A DNA stretch of 64,000 bases from Patescibacteria group bacterium (GCA_022705905.1 JAKJDO010000002.1:8872-72871); one strand, 5' to 3'. Numbered from the stretch's first letter, positions 2,008 to 59,359 are shown. The notes: generated by a model from the sequence alone, not told the origin. A program made the numbers and translations.

Positions 2008-2937
2008 ATGTTAAATTTTATCTTTTTTATCATTTCACTTTTTTTAGTTATTAAAAGCGCTGACTATGCCATTCATTATTCTTCTTGTTTGGCTGAAGGT
2101 TTAAAATTTTCAAAGTATGTAATCGGGTTTTTGTTGGTCGCCTTTATTTCTATCATTCCCGAAGCTTTTATTTCTATCGCTTCGGCTATGCAGGGGGCGC
2201 CAGCTTTTGGTTTAGGGACGATTTTTGGTTCCAATGTTGCTGATTTAACTTTGGTATTCGCAATCGTCGCCTTTGTTGCTTCCGATCATATTAAAGTTGA
2301 AAGCAAAATTATAAAAAATAGCCTGCCTTATATTTTAATAATGTCTACACCTATAATTTTTGGATTGAATGGGCACTATTCTAGAATAGAAGGAGCAGTT
2401 TTGGTTTTAATTGGCGTTTCTTTCTATTATTTAGTTTTAAGAAAAGAAAAGAGGGAAAATATCGTCGAGAAACGCTGTTTTATCTGGAGGCATTTTTTAC
2501 TATTGCTAATTAGCATGGTCGTTTTGTTGTTTGCTTCAAATATGACGGTAAAATTCGGAGTGTCTTTAGCTAACTTTCTTCAAATCAACCCAGTTTTAGT
2601 GGCTATGCTGTTTGTCGGTTTAGGCACAACTTTACCGGAATTATTTTTTTCTATCAAAGCAGTTAGAAATAATCACGACAGCTTAGCTATGGGCGATATT
2701 TTGGGTACTGTAATAACCGACGCTACTATTATCGTAGGTATTTTAGCCCTAATAAATCCATTTATTTTTGATCAAAAAATTATTTACGTTACTGGAATGT
2801 TTATGATTTTTGCTGTTATTTTACTACTTCATTTTATGAAAACTGGAGCGGTTTTAACAAAAAAAGAAGGATTATTTCTGTTGTTTTATTATTTGGCTTT
2901 TGTTTTAACCGAATTTTCTATTAACAACTTATTTTAA
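2008..2937 (+). CDS. Ca2+/Na+ antiporter family (CaCA, YrbG-like) membrane protein
   Basis: Two alpha-repeat motifs, GSNVADLTL and GTTLPELFFS; about 10 TM segments. Confidence 0.8.
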   Translation: MLNFIFFIISLFLVIKSADYAIHYSSCLAEGLKFSKYVIGFLLVAFISIIPEAFISIASAMQGAPAFGLGTIFGSNVADLTLVFAIVAFVASDHIKVESKIIKNSLPYILIMSTPIIFGLNGHYSRIEGAVLVLIGVSFYYLVLRKEKRENIVEKRCFIWRHFLLLLISMVVLLFASNMTVKFGVSLANFLQINPVLVAMLFVGLGTTLPELFFSIKAVRNNHDSLAMGDILGTVITDATIIVGILALINPFIFDQKIIYVTGMFMIFAVILLLHFMKTGAVLTKKEGLFLLFYYLAFVLTEFSINNLF

Positions 2938-3126
2938 ATTGTAAAATACTTGGTCTTCTGGAGAAAATAGCAAACCTAAAAAACAAGAAAAAGGCAGCGA
3001 GTGGGCACTCGTTTTTTTATTTAGCCAGTCAGAAAAATAGCTTCACTTTTTAGCATTAATTTGCTATTGTAATAGTAGGAAAATGGCAAAGAAATAAATT
3101 TTTATAGGTAAATTTAGCGAGATATT

Positions 3127-3948
3127 ATGTTCATAATTGGCAGCAAATTCAGTAGAATTATGGAGATTTTAAAGCTAGACAAGCCCTTGGTTATTTTTGA
3201 TATTGAAACTACGGGTCCTAATATTAGTATTGATAAAATTGTAGAAATTGCTTATATAAAAATTTGGGAGAATGGGAAGATGAAAAGAGACGATATATAT
3301 ATAAATCCAGAAGTAACGATCGGCAAAGAAGTTAGCGCCATCCATGGCTTGGATAACGAAAATTTAAAGGACAGACCAACTTTTCAACAGAAGTCTCAGG
3401 AGTTGTTTGATGTTTTTAGCAATTGTTTTTATGGCGGTTTTAATATCATTAATTTTGATTTGCCGGTCTTGCGCCGAGAATTTGTCCGGGTGGGCATGGA
3501 TTTAGAATATAGCCCAAGTCAGATTATCGACGCTAAGGAAATCTTTAAATTTTTAGAGCCAAAAAATTTGTCAGCCGCCTATTCTCATTATTGTCATAAA
3601 GAGATTAAGCAGAAGCCGGGAGCGATGGGTGACTCAGAAATAGCTGCCGATGTTTTGCTGGCGCAAATGGAAAAATATCAAGACTTAATGAATGTTGATT
3701 TTATAAAAAGAATTTATCACCCAAATTACGGTACCTTCAAAGATAATTCGCAAAAATTTTATTGGCGCAAGGGAGAAACATATTTATCCTTTTCCAAATA
3801 TAAAGACCGACCTTTGTCAGAAGTAGCTAAAGAAGATCCTTCTTTTTTAGAATGGATGTTAACTGCTGAATTTTCTAATGAAGCTAAGGACATTATCAGG
3901 ATGATTTTAAATAACAGTAAAAATAATAAAAAAACAATTGTAATGTAA
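3127..3948 (+). CDS. DEDDh 3'-5' exonuclease (DnaQ/PolIII-epsilon-like) with C-terminal extension
   Basis: VIFDIETTG ExoI motif, HGL and FDLPVL motifs. The start may be the internal ATG at 3160. Confidence 0.75.
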   Translation: MFIIGSKFSRIMEILKLDKPLVIFDIETTGPNISIDKIVEIAYIKIWENGKMKRDDIYINPEVTIGKEVSAIHGLDNENLKDRPTFQQKSQELFDVFSNCFYGGFNIINFDLPVLRREFVRVGMDLEYSPSQIIDAKEIFKFLEPKNLSAAYSHYCHKEIKQKPGAMGDSEIAADVLLAQMEKYQDLMNVDFIKRIYHPNYGTFKDNSQKFYWRKGETYLSFSKYKDRPLSEVAKEDPSFLEWMLTAEFSNEAKDIIRMILNNSKNNKKTIVM

Positions 3949-10518: not shown

Positions 10519-10675
10519 GTTTCTTTAAATAAGGCAGTTTGGAAATTTAATGTTGGAAGTTAAAGTAATTTAATTTTCAACTGCAATTTCTAAGAGAAGC
10601 TGAACTTTGACAATTTAAGAGAGCATCTAAAAATATAAGAACCAATAATAAGATTATTAAAATCAATAATGTGAG

Positions 10676-13945
<3,270 letters not shown>

Positions 13946-14001
13946 CACATTATTGGTTTTAAAAAAATTCGTTCATAGTTAAAATATAAAAAGCGCCATC
14001 G

Positions 14002-27120: not shown

Positions 27121-27121
27121 G

Positions 27122-27194
27122 TGCGCTAGGATGGATTTGAACCATCGACCCCCGCTTTATAAGAGCGGTGCTCTAACCACTGAGCTACTAGCGC
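27122..27194 (-). tRNA. tRNA-Ile (anticodon UAU)
   Basis: Minus strand: gcgctag-ta-gctc-agtggtt-agagc-a-ccgct-CTTATAA-agcgg-gggtc-gatgg-ttcaaat-ccatc-ctagcgc-a. Confidence 0.85.
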
Positions 27195-55130: not shown

Positions 55131-55742
55131 ATGGAACATCCAAGCAAGGAAAGAACCTTAGTAATTATTAAGCCAGACGGAGTTCAGCGTTCGTTGATTG
55201 GCGAAATTGTCCGTAGATACGAGCGCACCGGTTTAAAATTAACCGGTTTAAAAATGGTAATTCCAACCGAAGAATTAGCAACTAAGCATTACTATGAAGT
55301 AGGCGGCGATGCCTGGATAGAAGAAGTTGGCCGTAAAGCCCGAGCTTCTTACGAAAAAAAAGGTTTAACTTCGCCTTATAAAACTAACTCCGAAAATGGT
55401 TGGGCGGTCTTAAAATCTAACGCTAAATATTTAAGCTCCGGTCCGGTAGTTTGTATGATTTGGCAAGGCAACCAGGCAGTGGCCTTAGTTAGGAAAATAA
55501 CCGGCGGCACCGAACCGTTAACATCAGATGTCGGCAGCATCCGTGGTGATTTTACTTTAGATTCATATTCAATTGCCGACACCGATCAACGTAGTGTCCG
55601 CAATTTAATCCATGCTTCCGGCGCTACCGATGAGGCTGAAAAAGAAATAGCGATTTGGTTTAAAAAGGATGAAATTTCTCAGTATAGGCTAATTGCCGAA
55701 AGTATCCTTTATGACGTTAACTTAGACGGAATAAAAGAGTAA
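55131..55742 (+). CDS. ndk: Nucleoside diphosphate kinase (long form with internal insertion)
   Basis: ERTLVIIKPDGVQR, NLIHASG. About 50 aa longer than typical Ndk. Confidence 0.85.
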   Translation: MEHPSKERTLVIIKPDGVQRSLIGEIVRRYERTGLKLTGLKMVIPTEELATKHYYEVGGDAWIEEVGRKARASYEKKGLTSPYKTNSENGWAVLKSNAKYLSSGPVVCMIWQGNQAVALVRKITGGTEPLTSDVGSIRGDFTLDSYSIADTDQRSVRNLIHASGATDEAEKEIAIWFKKDEISQYRLIAESILYDVNLDGIKE

Positions 55743-55797
55743 TACTTGGCGCGTCGTTATGGAAAAACGGACTTTTGACTTTTAAGTTCGTTTTTTA

Positions 55798-55990
55798 TTG
55801 ACAAAGCCCTTACTTTGGTATAAGATATTGTTATATGGAAAAAGCCATACTCAAAATTCAGAATGTATTTACCATTATTTTAGTCGTATTGGTCGGCATT
55901 ATTATGCCGGAATTTGAGATGGTCAAGAAAGTATAAGGTAAAAAAATAACATAGATTATAAAGGGCCATCTCAACCGAGACGGCCCTTTT
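55798..55990 (+). promoter_or_regulatory. Module U1: promoter, tiny ORF 55835..55936 (MEKAILKIQNVFTIILVVLVGIIMPEFEMVKKV), alternative hairpins, terminator
   Basis: TTGACA at 55798. ctcaaaattc (55850-59) pairs with gaatttgag (55910-18). gagatggtc (55916-24) pairs with gggccatctc (55963-72), which otherwise pairs with gagacggccc (55977-86) followed by T4. Confidence 0.5.
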
Positions 55991-56006
55991 AGTTTGTTCT
56001 TTGACA

Positions 56007-56296
56007 GTCCTTGCTAAACTCTAGCTTTAGAGGAATGGGGAGAAACATAGAATTTTTTTAAACAGCTTAGGGGGTGTAAATCTTATGGATACGGGCATTA
56101 ACGGAACAAACAGAAAAACGAATATAATCAAGAGCAATATCCAGTCCTTAAACGGCAGGCTGGAAATTGCCATAACAAGGGGTGACGAACATGATGCGAG
56201 ACTTTACCGATTTCAGCTGAAACAGGCCTGGACAGGACTGAGCCGTTTGGAACCGGCAGAGTTTCCTGAGACTTAAAACAGAGAGTTAGCAAGGAC
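56007..56296 (+). repeat. 16-17 nt inverted repeat bracketing ORF 56085..56276
   Basis: gtccttgctaaactct (56007-56022) versus agagagttagcaaggac (56280-56296), starting 4 nt after the stop codon. Small terminator at 56298-56319. Confidence 0.6.
56085..56276 (+). CDS. Island ORF A, 63 aa, unknown
   Basis: Track ORF; a purine-rich gggggtg precedes the ATG. Confidence 0.45.
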   Translation: MDTGINGTNRKTNIIKSNIQSLNGRLEIAITRGDEHDARLYRFQLKQAWTGLSRLEPAEFPET

Positions 56297-56395
56297 GAGT
56301 GGCGTTAGTCACTATTTTTCGGAGACTAGGATACCGTCCTACTCCATTCGGGGGTCTTACCCAGATCCCCTTATTTTCCTAAAAATAATTTATAT

Positions 56396-56527
56396 ATGAA
56401 AAATTTTCAGAAAAATTTAAACATTATTATTATCGTTATTATTATTTTAAATAATGTTGTTTAAGTTTTTTTGAAGACAAAAAGAAAATAAAAGAGGGCG
56501 GTCTTTAAAAGAATGTCCGCTTTTTAG
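56396..56527 (+). promoter_or_regulatory. Module U1b: tiny ORF 56396..56464 (MKNFQKNLNIIIIVIIILNNVV) plus AU-rich hairpin and weak terminator
   Basis: Seven Ile codons in a run of eight. aatttaaacatt (56414-25) pairs imperfectly with aatgttgtttaagtt (56453-67). gggcgg/ccgc stem followed by T5 at 56496-56525. Confidence 0.35.
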
Positions 56528-56570
56528 ACAAAACAAAAACGCTCTTATTAAATTTTTTAAGGAGGATAAT

Positions 56571-56846
56571 ATGACAGACGAGACTTCATGCGGAATTTTT
56601 TCAGGCGTATTTCTCAATGAAGATGCAGTGAGAAGTTCTTTACAGGAGCAACACGCTATCGTCGGCGTTATTTTGTTAGACGGAAGAGTTGCTACCTATT
56701 TAGATTCCCAGTCTGATCACGGTGGATGTGTCAGAAATAGGTTGAATAACAGGATGTCAATTGTTAGAACCATTTGTGACTGTAAGCGAATTTCCCATGC
56801 GGGGATAAAGATTATCAGCACCAACGATGATTTGGCGGCAAAATAA
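56571..56846 (+). CDS. Island ORF B, 91 aa, unknown
   Basis: SD AAGGAGG 6 nt upstream. Confidence 0.5.
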   Translation: MTDETSCGIFSGVFLNEDAVRSSLQEQHAIVGVILLDGRVATYLDSQSDHGGCVRNRLNNRMSIVRTICDCKRISHAGIKIISTNDDLAAK

Positions 56847-56874
56847 CCCAGACTTGAAAAAAAAGGAGAAGACC

Positions 56875-56931
56875 ATGAACCTGAAAGAATATTTTATCGA
56901 CAATGACGACAAAGACCAAAGAGTATTTTAA
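56875..56931 (+). CDS. Possible 18-aa acidic peptide (MNLKEYFIDNDDKDQRVF)
   Basis: SD AAAGGAG 6 nt upstream; hand-translated. Confidence 0.3.
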   Translation: MNLKEYFIDNDDKDQRVF

Positions 56932-56958
56932 GATATACTCTTGGAGAAGAGTGGAAAA

Positions 56959-57222
56959 ATGCCAGTTGGTTACTGTGCAGTGTACGGTTTTGACAATGGT
57001 GCGGCGTACATTATAGATGAACCCAGCGAGACAAAGAAGTCTTTCTCATATTTTGAGAGCTTAACTAAGCGAGAAGCTTCTTTAGGAAAAGACTCCGGTA
57101 TAGTTATCAGGTCGAATGGCGTGCCATTTTTAACTGTTGGCGAACCATTTGAGAAATGGCTCAGGGCTTATAAAATGCCTGGGCATGACGTATTTGTCCT
57201 GGAGGGGAAAGACGGAACCTAG
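56959..57222 (+). CDS. Island ORF C, 87 aa, unknown
   Basis: Track ORF 56941..57222; the ATG at 56959 is preferred. Confidence 0.5.
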   Translation: MPVGYCAVYGFDNGAAYIIDEPSETKKSFSYFESLTKREASLGKDSGIVIRSNGVPFLTVGEPFEKWLRAYKMPGHDVFVLEGKDGT

Positions 57223-57242
57223 ACCGTCAGCGAGTATTGCTT

Positions 57243-57290
57243 GCTCCTCGCCATATACCTTTTCAATTATTGGCGAGGAGCTTGATTTTT
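57243..57290 (+). terminator. Intrinsic terminator after ORF C
   Basis: gctcctcgcca...tggcgaggagc followed by a T-run. Confidence 0.8.
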
Positions 57291-57464
57291 CTTATTAATG
57301 TGTTAATATAAAAACAGTATGATACAAGCTAAGCAACAAGCATTGTTATTAGGTTTATTGTTATTACTACCTTCGCGGGTGGCTTGTTTTCATGTAAAAA
57401 ATAGGTAAATAAGATTTACATAAAAACGCAGAATGGCTGCCCGCATCAAGCGGGTAGTTTTTTT
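57282..57464 (+). promoter_or_regulatory. Module U2: promoter, tiny ORF 57319..57408 (MIQAKQQALLLGLLLLLPSRVACFHVKNR), alternative hairpins, terminator
   Basis: TTGATT-16-TAATAT. atgatacaagc (57319-29) pairs with gcttgttttcat (57382-93). gcgggtggc (57375-83) pairs with gctgcccgc (57436-44), which otherwise pairs with gcgggtag (57450-57) followed by T7. Confidence 0.5.
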
Positions 57465-57492
57465 GTGATCAAAAGGAGGAGGTTCATTCAAG

Positions 57493-57777
57493 ATGAGTAA
57501 ATTACAAGCACAAACATCTGACAAACAATTTTCGTGTATCGGCGGTTGTGGCGACCTCGTGTATAGCAAAGGTGAAAAGTGTGCTTCCTGCCAAAGAGCA
57601 GAAGCGACTGTAACTTTTTTGATCAAACAAGGAGGGGGTGAAATAAGAGACTGGGAAAGTTGCCCAACATATCAAAGGATCGAGCAACCGTGTGAAAATG
57701 AGTGCTCCGGTTGCATGAGGGCCTGGAGTATAAAAGAGACGAGAAGACAAGTCGGCGCAGCAATAGTCAATGCCTAA
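57493..57777 (+). CDS. Island ORF D, 94 aa, Cys-rich (two zinc-ribbon-like clusters)
   Basis: SD GGAGGAGG. CIGGC...CASC and CPTYQRIEQPCENECSGC. Confidence 0.55.
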   Translation: MSKLQAQTSDKQFSCIGGCGDLVYSKGEKCASCQRAEATVTFLIKQGGGEIRDWESCPTYQRIEQPCENECSGCMRAWSIKETRRQVGAAIVNA

Positions 57778-57797
57778 ACGATACAAGGAGGAGCTCT

Positions 57798-57947
57798 ATG
57801 AAAAATTCTATGGAAGATCGTGTTTGCCGTTGCTCCAATCCGCATTACAGAGGCGGAGTATGTATAACTTGCGGCGGGAAGTTTGTCGTCAAGTCAATTC
57901 GGCCGCTTTGTTGCCGAGTACCAATTCCGCCCAAGCCGCCTAGGTGA
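57798..57947 (+). CDS. Island ORF E, 49 aa, zinc-ribbon-like
   Basis: SD AAGGAGG. CRC...CITCGG. Confidence 0.5.
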   Translation: MKNSMEDRVCRCSNPHYRGGVCITCGGKFVVKSIRPLCCRVPIPPKPPR

Positions 57948-57972
57948 CAGTCGGATCAATGCTCTCTTGTTC

Positions 57973-58005
57973 GAGGGGTGGCTTTATGTCCACCCCGCTT
58001 TTTTT
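57973..58005 (+). terminator. Intrinsic terminator after ORF E
   Basis: ggggtgg ctttatgt ccacccc followed by T7. Confidence 0.8.
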
Positions 58006-58034
58006 ATTAAAATTAGGTAAAAAATAGGACATGC

Positions 58035-58237
58035 TTGCATTTTTGTGTAATTTTGGTATAATTATCCACAAGAGTAAAGATATGATTAAAACATCACTAA
58101 GAAACAATTTCTATTTTGGCTTTTATTTTAGTCTCCAGGGGAGATCGTTTCTTAGTGGTGTTTTGACGAAATAGTAAAAAACAAACACCATTAGGGAAAA
58201 CAAAACGAGCCTCCCCGTAAACCGGGGAGGTTTGTTT
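58035..58237 (+). promoter_or_regulatory. Module U3: promoter, tiny ORF 58082..58174 (MIKTSLRNNFYFGFYFSLQGRSFLSGVLTK), 18-bp hairpin, terminator
   Basis: TTGCAT-16-TGgTATAAT. aaaacatcactaagaaac (58088-105) pairs with gtttcttagtggtgtttt (58147-64). ggggag (58138-43) can pair with ctcccc of the terminator cctccccg/cggggagg (58210-30). Confidence 0.5.
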
Positions 58238-58261
58238 ATTAAGAAAAATAGTTTAAATAAC

Positions 58262-58389
58262 ATGAAAAAGATATTACAAACAACGAGCTTCTATTTCTAC
58301 CTTTACTTTTTTAGATAAAGGCTGGTTGTTTGTGATATTTTAAATCACAAAAAGAAAAAGAACCGGCCTTGAAGAAAGTCCGGTTCTTT
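58262..58389 (+). promoter_or_regulatory. Module U4: tiny ORF 58262..58318 (MKKILQTTSFYFYLYFFR), 14-bp hairpin, terminator-like stem
   Basis: atattacaaacaac (58271-84) pairs with gttgtttgtgatat (58325-38). ctggttgtt (58322-30) can pair with aagaaccgg (58358-66), which otherwise pairs with ccggttctt (58380-88). Confidence 0.45.
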
Positions 58390-58448
58390 AATTATATAGA
58401 TCTTTAGCAATTATCTTAACTATCCTACATCAGGGAGGAAGACGACAG

Positions 58449-58667
58449 ATGGGAAAAGAGCTTATTTGGGTTGGAGAAAAGTGTCATCAGCTAGTAACAA
58501 TCGCTAGTAACGACAAGCACGAGGGGGTGTGTCCAGAGTGCGGTAACGTAGAGTACGCGATACGCGGGTTTTTACATTCCGATGGCACTATTGAAGAGGC
58601 AACTATCGACAGCGTCAGTCGGTGGTTAAGGGAAAAGGTGCAAGAAGCAGCAGCAAAAGCTGCTTAA
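58449..58667 (+). CDS. Island ORF F, 72 aa, zinc-ribbon-like (CH...CPEC)
   Basis: SD GGGAGG; track ORF. Confidence 0.55.
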   Translation: MGKELIWVGEKCHQLVTIASNDKHEGVCPECGNVEYAIRGFLHSDGTIEEATIDSVSRWLREKVQEAAAKAA

Positions 58668-58686
58668 TACGAGGAGGTTTGAAACC

Positions 58687-59037
58687 ATGAAAGAAACACA
58701 GACACAGACGATAATTTCAGGCGCGATGTTTTTCCGGCTCGGCGGTTACTTTGAGGACGACACCCATCTTCAGTGGCTCAGAAAAGCCCTTGAGGAAAGG
58801 GGTGTTATGCTGATCGATACAGAGCCGTTGCCTTTGAAGCCGCATCTCAATCAGAAGCCGACAGGAACCCAGGTCTCAATCGAGGCCGGCATACTCGAAC
58901 CGCTTGAAGTGACGGAACTGATGTGTCCGGCATTGAGAGCAAGAGTCCTCGGCTTCTCTTGGACGGCTGAGCCCGACCCTGAGCATTCGGAAAGGATCGA
59001 TTCTGTCGGCACCAAGTCGCAGGAAGCTGCGAGGTGA
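58687..59037 (+). CDS. Island ORF G, 116 aa, unknown
   Basis: SD GAGGAGG; about 52% GC in the sampled row 58801-58860. Confidence 0.55.
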   Translation: MKETQTQTIISGAMFFRLGGYFEDDTHLQWLRKALEERGVMLIDTEPLPLKPHLNQKPTGTQVSIEAGILEPLEVTELMCPALRARVLGFSWTAEPDPEHSERIDSVGTKSQEAAR

Positions 59038-59041
59038 CGAC

Positions 59042-59209
59042 ATGGACGAACAGGCAGTAGGAGAATACAACTTCTTCACTTATGATTCAGGCGACAAGGG
59101 CGACCACCAGCCGGCAGAAGGGGAGACATCCAGTTCTTCTCCATCATCAACAACAGCGCCTTCAGAACAGAAGCGCATCAAGTACCTCTTCTCAGATGTG
59201 GGGAGGTAG
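59042..59209 (+). CDS. Island ORF H, 55 aa, acidic/Ser-rich
   Basis: ATG 4 nt after the ORF G stop codon; hand-translated MDEQAVGEYNFFTYDSGDKGDHQPAEGETSSSSPSSTTAPSEQKRIKYLFSDVGR. Confidence 0.4.
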   Translation: MDEQAVGEYNFFTYDSGDKGDHQPAEGETSSSSPSSTTAPSEQKRIKYLFSDVGR

Positions 59210-59249
59210 CAAAGCCCGATAGCAAACGGGGAAGGAGGTAGTCAGATTA

Positions 59250-59290
59250 GGTCCGGGGAACGTAAGTACCTGGACCTTCTTTTTATTTTT
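59250..59290 (+). terminator. Intrinsic terminator closing the F-G-H unit
   Basis: ggtccgg...cctggacc followed by a T-rich tract. Confidence 0.7.
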
Positions 59291-59359
59291 AAAACTTGAC
59301 AATTTTTAAAACTTATGCTATACTTTTTAAACAAAAAATGCCCTTTGAAAGGAAAAACA

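Follow-up and report, generated by a model that had tools for sequence, protein, structure and literature searches.

This study concerns a 64,000-nucleotide stretch of Patescibacteria DNA, referred to here as the window, and in particular a short unit within it that occupies positions 55798 to 55990 of the plus strand. The source lineage belongs to the candidate phyla radiation (CPR), and contig MWBG01000001.1 of Parcubacteria group bacterium ADurb.Bin316, from an anaerobic digester, is 100% identical to the window. The unit begins directly downstream of ndk (55131-55742). The terminator hairpin of ndk (AACGGACTT..AAGTTCGTT, approximately 55766-55796) abuts the -35 element of the unit's promoter; it has an A tract on one side and a T tract on the other, making termination in both directions possible. 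The unit itself consists of a promoter, a 33-codon open reading frame (ORF) and an intrinsic terminator. It is followed by a gene with a Shine-Dalgarno (SD) sequence that encodes a 63-residue ORFan protein (56085..56276, plus strand), which is the presumed regulated target and opens an island of small genes. In our view this unit, or module, is probably an ilv/leu-type attenuator of transcription operated by the ribosome, in which a leader peptide made from a leaderless mRNA would govern the ORFan island. Computation established four RNA segments, the exclusive and co-varying helices that they form and the specificity of those helices; it also showed that the ORF is translated and that downstream genes need read-through.

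The promoter matches the sigma-70 consensus at 10 of 12 positions. Its -35 hexamer, TTGACA (55798..55803), is invariant or nearly so in all orthologous and analogous modules, and a 17-nt spacer separates it from the -10 hexamer TAAGAT (55821..55826). A first-pass annotation of the window had already placed TTGACA at 55798 and had offered TATAAG or TAAGAT as the -10 element; TTGACA stands, and TAAGAT is the better of the two candidates. The 8 nt between the -10 hexamer and the ATG at 55835 (ATTGTTAT) contain no SD sequence. This distance is also 8 nt (6-9 in a few) at the related loci L032, L033, L217, L219, L004, L005, L048, L037 and L015 (see below), and 13 nt at L002/L040. Since a conserved spacing between the -10 hexamer and the ATG is what a leaderless mRNA requires, it implies, together with the missing SD sequence, a transcription start site that would leave the mRNA leaderless or with a leader of 1-2 nt. 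The ORF (55835..55936) encodes MEKAILKIQNVFTIILVVLVGIIMPEFEMVKKV, and gene calls place it on 20 contigs belonging to the same species. Its hydrophobic core, TIILVVLVGII (55871..55909), is the presumed stalling zone and holds two small hairpins (ACCA..UGGU, 55871-93, and CGGCAU..AUGCCG, 55894-909).

The four segments of the transcript offer competing ways to fold. Region 1 (W, 55844..55859) covers codons 4-9, including Ile, Leu and Ile codons, and is the 5' strand of the 1:2 helix in the minimum free energy (MFE) fold. Region 2 (X, 55910..55924), at codons 26-30, has two potential partners, namely region 1 (via 55910-23) and region 3 (via GAGATGGTC, 55916-24). The TAA stop codon (55934..55936) begins 9-10 nt past region 2 and is followed by an A-rich spacer that is unstructured and unconserved (55937..55962). 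Next is region 3 (Y, 55963..55972), which is both the 5' arm of the terminator and the antiterminator partner of region 2. Region 4 (Z, 55977-86) and its TTTT tract complete the module (55977..55990). Regions 3 and 4 form an intrinsic terminator of -14.9 kcal/mol, the arms of which (GGGCCATCTC, 55963-72, and GAGACGGCCC, 55977-86) contain one A.C mismatch. The MFE fold combines this terminator with a 1:2 helix between nt 10-25 of the ORF (55844-59) and nt 76-89 (55910-23), inside which CTCAAAATTC (55850-59) pairs with GAATTTGAG (55910-18). The 2:3 helix joins GAGATGGTC to GGCCATCTC (55964-72) by nine pairs, one of them G.U, at -14.7 kcal/mol. The 1:2, 2:3 and 3:4 helices are mutually exclusive.

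These elements agree with the first-pass annotation, which had described the SD-less ATG at 55835, the 33-codon ORF, the pairing that encloses the hydrophobic codons (it proves to be part of a longer helix), the 9-bp alternative, the mismatched terminator with its four Ts and a stop codon 10 nt beyond region 2. That annotation had also staked its model on pairing energies that differ from those of shuffled controls, and they do. The 158-nt transcript folds with a z score of -3.4 relative to dinucleotide shuffles. The duplex between the ORF and the 5' arm of the terminator lies at the 3' end of the ORF and is equalled by 0.8% of 2000 dinucleotide shuffles of the ORF.

Is the ORF needed to explain any of this? 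The product of the locus might simply be a structured small RNA, non-coding and about 155 nt long, with the ORF incidental. In favour of this, the transcript is equipped with a promoter and terminator of its own, its folding is significant (z is -3.4 on both strands) and Rfam offers a weak sub-threshold match to Atu_C9, at 22 bits with a gathering score of 40. However, it is mainly the terminator hairpin that carries the alignment to Atu_C9. In the scan of the whole window no Rfam family reached its gathering score here, and this includes Leu_leader, Thr_leader, Phe_leader, His_leader and Trp_leader. At E <= 10 the interval 55700-56600 gave only sub-threshold matches to Atu_C9, GibS, RefA9 and Phe_leader, carried by the terminator hairpin; the Phe_leader match (E = 6.9, over the terminator) is the sole hit to an Rfam leader family. 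A second argument against an incidental ORF comes from its pattern of change. Five full orthologues retain the frame, the start codon and the stop codon, and their indels are 3 nt long, located in the loop of the second core hairpin (55894-909). Pairwise comparison of core codons 13-23 in the five orthologues gives 12 synonymous differences and 0 non-synonymous ones. Because the core substitutions are synonymous only and the indels preserve the frame, the leader ORF is evidently translated. An RNA with an incidental ORF is scarcely credible.

The search for relatives began with the Ndk protein. Scans of genome and metagenome collections gave 88 loci (L numbers), and look-ups of close Ndk homologues added more. 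When the region was compared with the first 31 ndk loci by blastn and tblastn, nothing significant emerged, and relatives were recognised only by reading the sequence downstream of ndk. Look-ups with P0008, P0011, P0020 and P0017 led to no module-bearing locus, and a degenerate DNA pattern applied to viral contigs was discarded after more than 120 unspecific matches. True orthologues of the module follow ndk at L032, L033, L217/218, L219-221 and L222 (cut by the contig end). Diverged analogues occupy the same position at L004/L005/L035, L036/L037, L048, L002/L040, L051 and L015/L060. All of the related modules share a near-consensus promoter, an ATG without an SD sequence, a 24-36-codon ORF and a terminator, with an SD-led gene next. 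The ORFs have a polar K/Q/N head and a hydrophobic block, and the stop codon lies 0-20 nt downstream of X.

Comparison of these modules supports an RNA switch. In alignment A3 the 1:2 and 3:4 helices are paired in 90.8% of cells, versus 38-51% when the partners are slid by 1-3 columns, and both sides have changed at 4 pairs. One pair of region 1 (10-92) occurs as G-C, G.U and A-U. The corresponding values for the 2:3 helix are 97.8% versus 35-53%, with double changes at 2 pairs. Covariation extends through all four regions: regions 1, 2, 3 and 4 read G, U, G, C in the window, G, C, G, C in L032 and L219, A, U, A, U in L033 and G, U, A, U in L217. Across 12 modules drawn from all clades, the 9-bp core of the 2:3 helix is paired in 102 of 108 cells, with at least 2 pair types at 5 of 9 positions; it is no less well kept than the terminator stem, which is paired in 97 of 108. 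The two structures do not always share their defects. The window and L004/5 have an A.C mismatch in the terminator where the antiterminator has A-U, and in L037 the situation is reversed. This looks like a tuning of the balance between terminator and antiterminator.

In effect, X is approximately a copy of Z, the 3' arm of the terminator. This bears on a more mundane possibility, namely that the ORF encodes a small membrane protein in the ordinary way, with the peptide as the functional product, that it comes first in an operon with a leaky terminator of its own and that the pairings are non-regulatory or affect only mRNA stability. The peptide does look like a transmembrane segment, its core is under purifying selection, the motif TII..G[IV]I is common to diverged clades and gene callers annotate the ORF. 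However, purifying selection fades just where the pairing lies. The tail of the ORF that holds region 2 has a pN/pS (ratio of non-synonymous to synonymous change) of 0.75, a sign of weak constraint on the protein, yet X tracks the changes of its own terminator arm by compensatory substitution while the encoded residues drift. X is therefore held by pairing and not by the peptide. Nor is such complementarity a common accident. As a control for specificity, 70 ordinary genes of at least 100 codons' worth of protein (>=100 aa) with a terminator within 75 nt were taken from the same loci. Their best duplex between ORF tail and terminator 5' arm averages -6.8 kcal/mol, and 0 of 70 reach -12 kcal/mol or lower, or a z score of -2.5 or lower. 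The modules give -11 to -19 kcal/mol and z scores of -2.9 to -5.2, always at the 3' end of the ORF. An unrelated ORF with a Leu run has the same X~Z design (described below). A last control is the N-terminal transmembrane helix of the neighbouring MBL-fold protein, which is almost unrecognisable between the same genomes. This helix diverges freely, so that conservation of the mini-ORF core is not merely that of a generic membrane anchor. A plain small-protein gene is thus improbable, although the peptide could have a function of its own without excluding an attenuator.

A special case of a functional peptide is a toxin. The first-pass annotation had suggested an Fst/Ldr-like one, which would make the locus a type I toxin-antitoxin system with a membrane toxin mRNA controlled by an antisense RNA. 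The window peptide indeed runs from a polar head through a transmembrane segment to a charged tail. The suggested check for an antisense promoter found a minus-strand site (55926..55898, a 10/12 match) that faces the ORF and recurs in 4 of 5 close orthologues, and the upstream ndk terminator looks bidirectional. However, the site is built of the conserved X and the ATT ATT Ile codons, and neither L219 nor any of the other clades (8 modules) has it, which confines it to the closest relatives. In L032 ndk abuts the promoter, and hence there is no terminator for an antisense RNA. The charged tail fares no better, being absent from the relatives at L004, L048 and L002. When 7 peptides were scanned against Pfam and NCBIfam with a cut-off of E <= 10, no toxin family was matched, Fst, Ldr, Hok, TisB and Ibs included. 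In addition, a consensus promoter on a leaderless toxin would be constitutively lethal, and the covariation of X with Y would be left unexplained. The toxin idea has accordingly become very unlikely.

A scan of the window for a promoter followed by 5-10 nt, an ATG and a short ORF gave two hits only, the module at 55798 and a non-homologous one at 57282..57466 (plus strand). The second module has orthologues in L032 and L219 and a diverged form in L051. Its promoter, TTGATT-16-TAATAT (57282-57309), is followed by 9 nt and an ATG at 57319. The leader ORF (57319-57408) encodes MIQAKQQALLLGLLLLLPSRVACFHVKNR, with the Leu run LLLGLLLLL. Its segments are X (CGCGGGTGGCTT, 57374-85), Y (57435-44) and Z (57450-59), with a T7 tract at 57460-66, and once again X resembles Z. 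Over the module and its L032 and L219 orthologues, 12 differences in the Leu run are synonymous and 0 are non-synonymous, X is invariant and the duplexes have z scores of -3.2 to -5.2. The same architecture was found in a scan of 608 kb of CPR loci at L051 4025 (leader LLLQLLLP), L023 4662 (leader LLGLLLLLLCLL, directly after ndk in a distant member of the Parcubacteria), L023 5195 and L004 5323. Aromatic-rich mini-ORFs reminiscent of pheL occur in ndk-adjacent modules at L015/L060 1409-1529 (MEITSKNYFAFWFFTPNCRKRFSV) and L006/L039 at about 2174-2321 (MIKTIQKTVFNFYFYFSS..). One further candidate was rejected. A third mini-ORF of the window, with an Ile run (MKNFQKNLNIIIIVIIILNNVV, 56397-56465), comes after a terminator-like hairpin (56350-56370) and before an SD-led gene at 56571, with a weak hairpin and T tract downstream at about 56491-56520. 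Its first 17 or so codons are conserved in L032 and L219, after which the frame is lost (indels of +1 and -7 nt); it has no X:Y design and no evident promoter.

The position of the downstream genes provides another clue. An SD-led gene for a Cys-rich protein of 94 residues (57493..57777, plus strand) starts 33 nt past the terminator stem of the second module, and the pairing of a Leu-run module with a Cys-rich gene recurs in L032, L219 and L051. The gene that follows the first module of L219-221 and L051 begins 30-36 nt past the terminator. A gap of 30-36 nt leaves no room for a promoter, so that expression is by read-through only. Genes that can be reached only by read-through make the terminators in front of them regulatory by construction.

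How might the attenuator work? The promoter, a strong one, would start the transcript at the AUG, or 1-2 nt before it, and a ribosome would load on the 5'-terminal AUG. With the ORF untranslated, the 1:2 helix would form first, leaving region 3 free for the 3:4 terminator. With smooth translation to the stop codon, a ribosome terminating so near region 2 would cover it and again the terminator would form. The third situation is the decisive one. A ribosome stalled in the Ile/Val/Leu block, between regions 1 and 2, would break the 1:2 helix and leave region 2 naked. Region 2 could then take region 3 as it emerges, preventing the terminator, and RNA polymerase would read into the small genes. 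In this scheme the start site, the stall, the kinetic preference for the 2:3 helix and the sensed signal are what we infer. Folding calculations are consistent with the scheme in several respects. The MFE of full-length transcripts contains the 1:2 helix and the terminator in most modules. When the transcript ends at region 3, as it does before region 4 has been synthesised, 12 of 13 modules have the 2:3 helix in their MFE fold; the L015 pairing (UGUCGGA:UCCGACA) is among those present in a nascent-transcript fold, and it is not significant by shuffling. Masking a ribosome at the stop codon leaves the terminator alone. Masking a ribosome stalled on the hydrophobic block allows the 2:3 helix to beat the terminator at full length in L004, L005, L048 and L040. 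The first-pass idea that ribosome position could choose between terminator and antiterminator thus gains from the four-way covariation, the nascent folds, the translated ORF and the read-through geometry, which support it as a probable mechanism.

Several observations weigh against this attenuator. First, the full-length RNA of the window keeps the terminator as its MFE structure even under the stall mask, which means that antitermination in the window's own clade rests on a kinetic, co-transcriptional argument. Second, the comparative depth is small, with 5 close orthologues and about 7 diverged relatives that are mutually non-independent. Third, for the 2:3 helix alone, shuffle control (a) equalled the observed score in 50 of 500 shuffles, and a narrow shuffle test finds the X:Y duplex not significant for L002, L040 and L015. 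Fourth, a weak promoter-like site at 56026-56053 (9/12) could drive the first downstream gene of the window independently; the gap between terminator and gene is 98 nt there, so that read-through dependence is ambiguous. Fifth, the downstream genes are ORFans rather than genes of amino-acid biosynthesis, their proteins having no Pfam or PHROG assignment, and the physiological logic is accordingly tentative. A target operon that makes or handles the sensed amino acid is typical of classical attenuators, although the mechanism does not need one. Finally, all leaders found are rich in hydrophobic I/L/V/F and none has, for example, a His or Thr run. With every leader hydrophobic, amino-acid sensing is inseparable from a property of hydrophobic or membrane peptides.

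This last point leads to the nature of the signal. Our leading guess is that the module would sense the supply of charged tRNA-Ile/Val/Leu, and the second module that of tRNA-Leu, because the leaders resemble ilvL, leuL and pheL and because the clades share composition but not sequence (Ile-rich, Leu-run or, in L015, Phe/Trp-rich). The runs TIILVVLVGII and LLLGLLLLL are conserved as amino acids, with synonymous drift. But what if the switch is right and the trigger is something else? A nascent hydrophobic arrest peptide, ribosome-targeting antibiotics or general translation capacity might operate the same switch in place of charged branched-chain tRNA. The strict conservation of core residues, Thr and Gly included, is more like that of a specific peptide than that of a codon counter. 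Common to the leaders are a polar head of K/Q/N and a hydrophobic stretch, often with a Pro, which is conserved after the hydrophobic run, and the targets are not amino-acid genes. Known antibiotic-responsive leader-peptide attenuators (erm, cat, ABC-F) also have hydrophobic leaders. Conversely, it is composition and not sequence that is conserved over the family, in parallel with ilvL, leuL and pheL, the synonymous drift among Leu codons of the Leu run fits amino-acid sensing and the downstream genes include no resistance gene. A different trigger is therefore unlikely, though it deserves to be kept in mind.

A signal of tRNA supply would report nutrient supply in an amino-acid-auxotrophic CPR cell. 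It is possible, if rather speculative, that Parcubacteria, unable to make amino acids, use leaderless leaders with Ile/Val/Leu runs as a gauge of the amino-acid supply of their host or environment, with shortage causing antitermination into a hypervariable, ndk-adjacent island of small ORFan and Cys-rich proteins. If so, the modules would make up a 'ribulon' that couples starvation to a possibly host-directed programme, the first such circuit described in the CPR.

The island itself extends over 3.3 kb (56085-59300) and consists of SD-led ORFs of 55-116 residues, several with CxxC pairs. A significant Pfam or PHROG assignment was sought for the island proteins and none was found. The G+C content is 0.48-0.52 at 57500-59000 versus about 0.36 in the flanks. 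Island content differs among related genomes, and the upstream ndk, response regulator and MBL-fold genes are syntenic. In L032 and L040, proteins resembling the small downstream ones of the window come after the module. One stretch of the island is conserved (58031-58174, and also L032 4589-4720, L002 5582-5692 and L040 4461-4568). It contains a small-ORF reading (..FGIIIHK..NNFYFGFYF..) with no convincing SD sequence, and a strong minus-strand terminator (58230-58210) lies nearby. Instead of a protein, this stretch may represent a non-coding RNA or some feature of the minus strand.

Other features were noted in passing. About half of the modules, some of them non-homologous, have a motif, G[AT]TCTTT, 5-12 nt past the terminator stem. 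It is found in the window at 55991-56002 (TAGTTTGTTCTTTG) and also in L032, L033, L217, L037, L002, L051, L023 and L004, and it could be a site of processing or of binding, or else a distal portion of the U tract. In more distant CPR genomes, a promoter comes after ndk and then a structured RNA that is conserved and about 130-150 nt long (..GGGAGCC..GG[AG]CACCCACCT..) with a terminator at its end (L016 about 2185-2340, L021 about 2920-3080, L063-L065 about 3640-3760 and L066-L070). Rfam gave no family at gathering score for this RNA, the best sub-threshold match being MCS4 (E = 0.03); a first guess that it is signal recognition particle RNA found no confirmation in Rfam. Elsewhere in the window, a 23S rRNA match (10673-13948) spans 3276 nt on a 2925-nt model, which implies insertions, a common feature in the CPR. 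A tRNA-Ile with anticodon UAU lies at 27121-27194.

To our knowledge, almost nothing is known about gene regulation in the CPR/Patescibacteria. These organisms have tiny genomes with few transcription factors, and most lineages are uncultured. A ribosome-operated attenuator needs no dedicated regulator protein and would therefore suit a reduced genome. Searching the full-text literature, we found no report that joins CPR, Patescibacteria or Parcubacteria with leader-peptide or transcription attenuation. If confirmed, the module would extend classical attenuation to a new superphylum and join it to leaderless translation. It would also be a case of attenuation of non-metabolic ORFan genes, and would provide a handle on when, and hence for what, these small proteins are made. 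Further examples could be sought by a simple signature, in which an ATG lies about 8 nt past a consensus promoter, the ORF is short and hydrophobic, and its tail repeats the 3' arm of the next terminator.

How does the module compare with known systems? Fst/Ldr type I toxins are alike in having a peptide of about 30 residues with a transmembrane segment and a highly structured mRNA. Unlike them, the module has no family match, no conserved antisense RNA and no conserved charged tail, and its RNA features are explained by a terminator/antiterminator switch. It also differs from the leader families of Rfam, with which it has no sequence or structure match.

A closer parallel is found in mycobacteria, where leaderless polycysteine small ORFs act as attenuators, with several per genome forming a 'ribulon' (Canestrari et al., bioRxiv 10.1101/834739). 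There, a stalled ribosome unmasks the next gene's ribosome-binding site, control is translational and the targets belong to Cys metabolism (bioRxiv 10.1101/834739). Common to both systems would be a leaderless small ORF as the first cistron (probable in the present case) and stalling on a run of codons for one residue, which remodels the mRNA and controls operonic genes. However, the competing structure here is an intrinsic terminator with a U tract, which points to transcriptional control, the runs are of Ile/Val/Leu and the targets are ORFans. Leader peptides of Corynebacterium glutamicum are another case, and Neshat and colleagues reportedly described them in 2014 on leaderless transcripts. 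The small leader peptides of C. glutamicum ilvB, leuA, trpE and aroF are thought to act by transcription attenuation (PMC3890552). Unlike the present targets, theirs are biosynthetic operons of Actinobacteria, and they have no sequence relationship to this module.

The nearest relatives in design are the classical attenuators of Proteobacteria, including those of ilvGMEDA (ilvL), ilvBN (ivbL), leu (leuL), thr (thrL), phe (pheL), trp (trpL) and his (hisL). They too have a short translated ORF with a run of regulatory codons, exclusive 1:2, 2:3 and 3:4 pairings of which 3:4 is an intrinsic terminator, a stop codon so placed that a ribosome ending translation there masks region 2, and termination as the default. 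In ilvL and leuL, hydrophobic I/V/L runs are followed by Pro or Gly. The differences are that the module would be translated leaderless, without an SD sequence, in a CPR/Parcubacteria host, that it would control small ORFans unconnected with the synthesis of amino acids and that the ORF contains both region 1 and region 2, the regulatory codons standing between the two. The class of mechanism is textbook. Novelty lies in the lineage, in the probable leaderless start of translation and in ORFan genes as targets.

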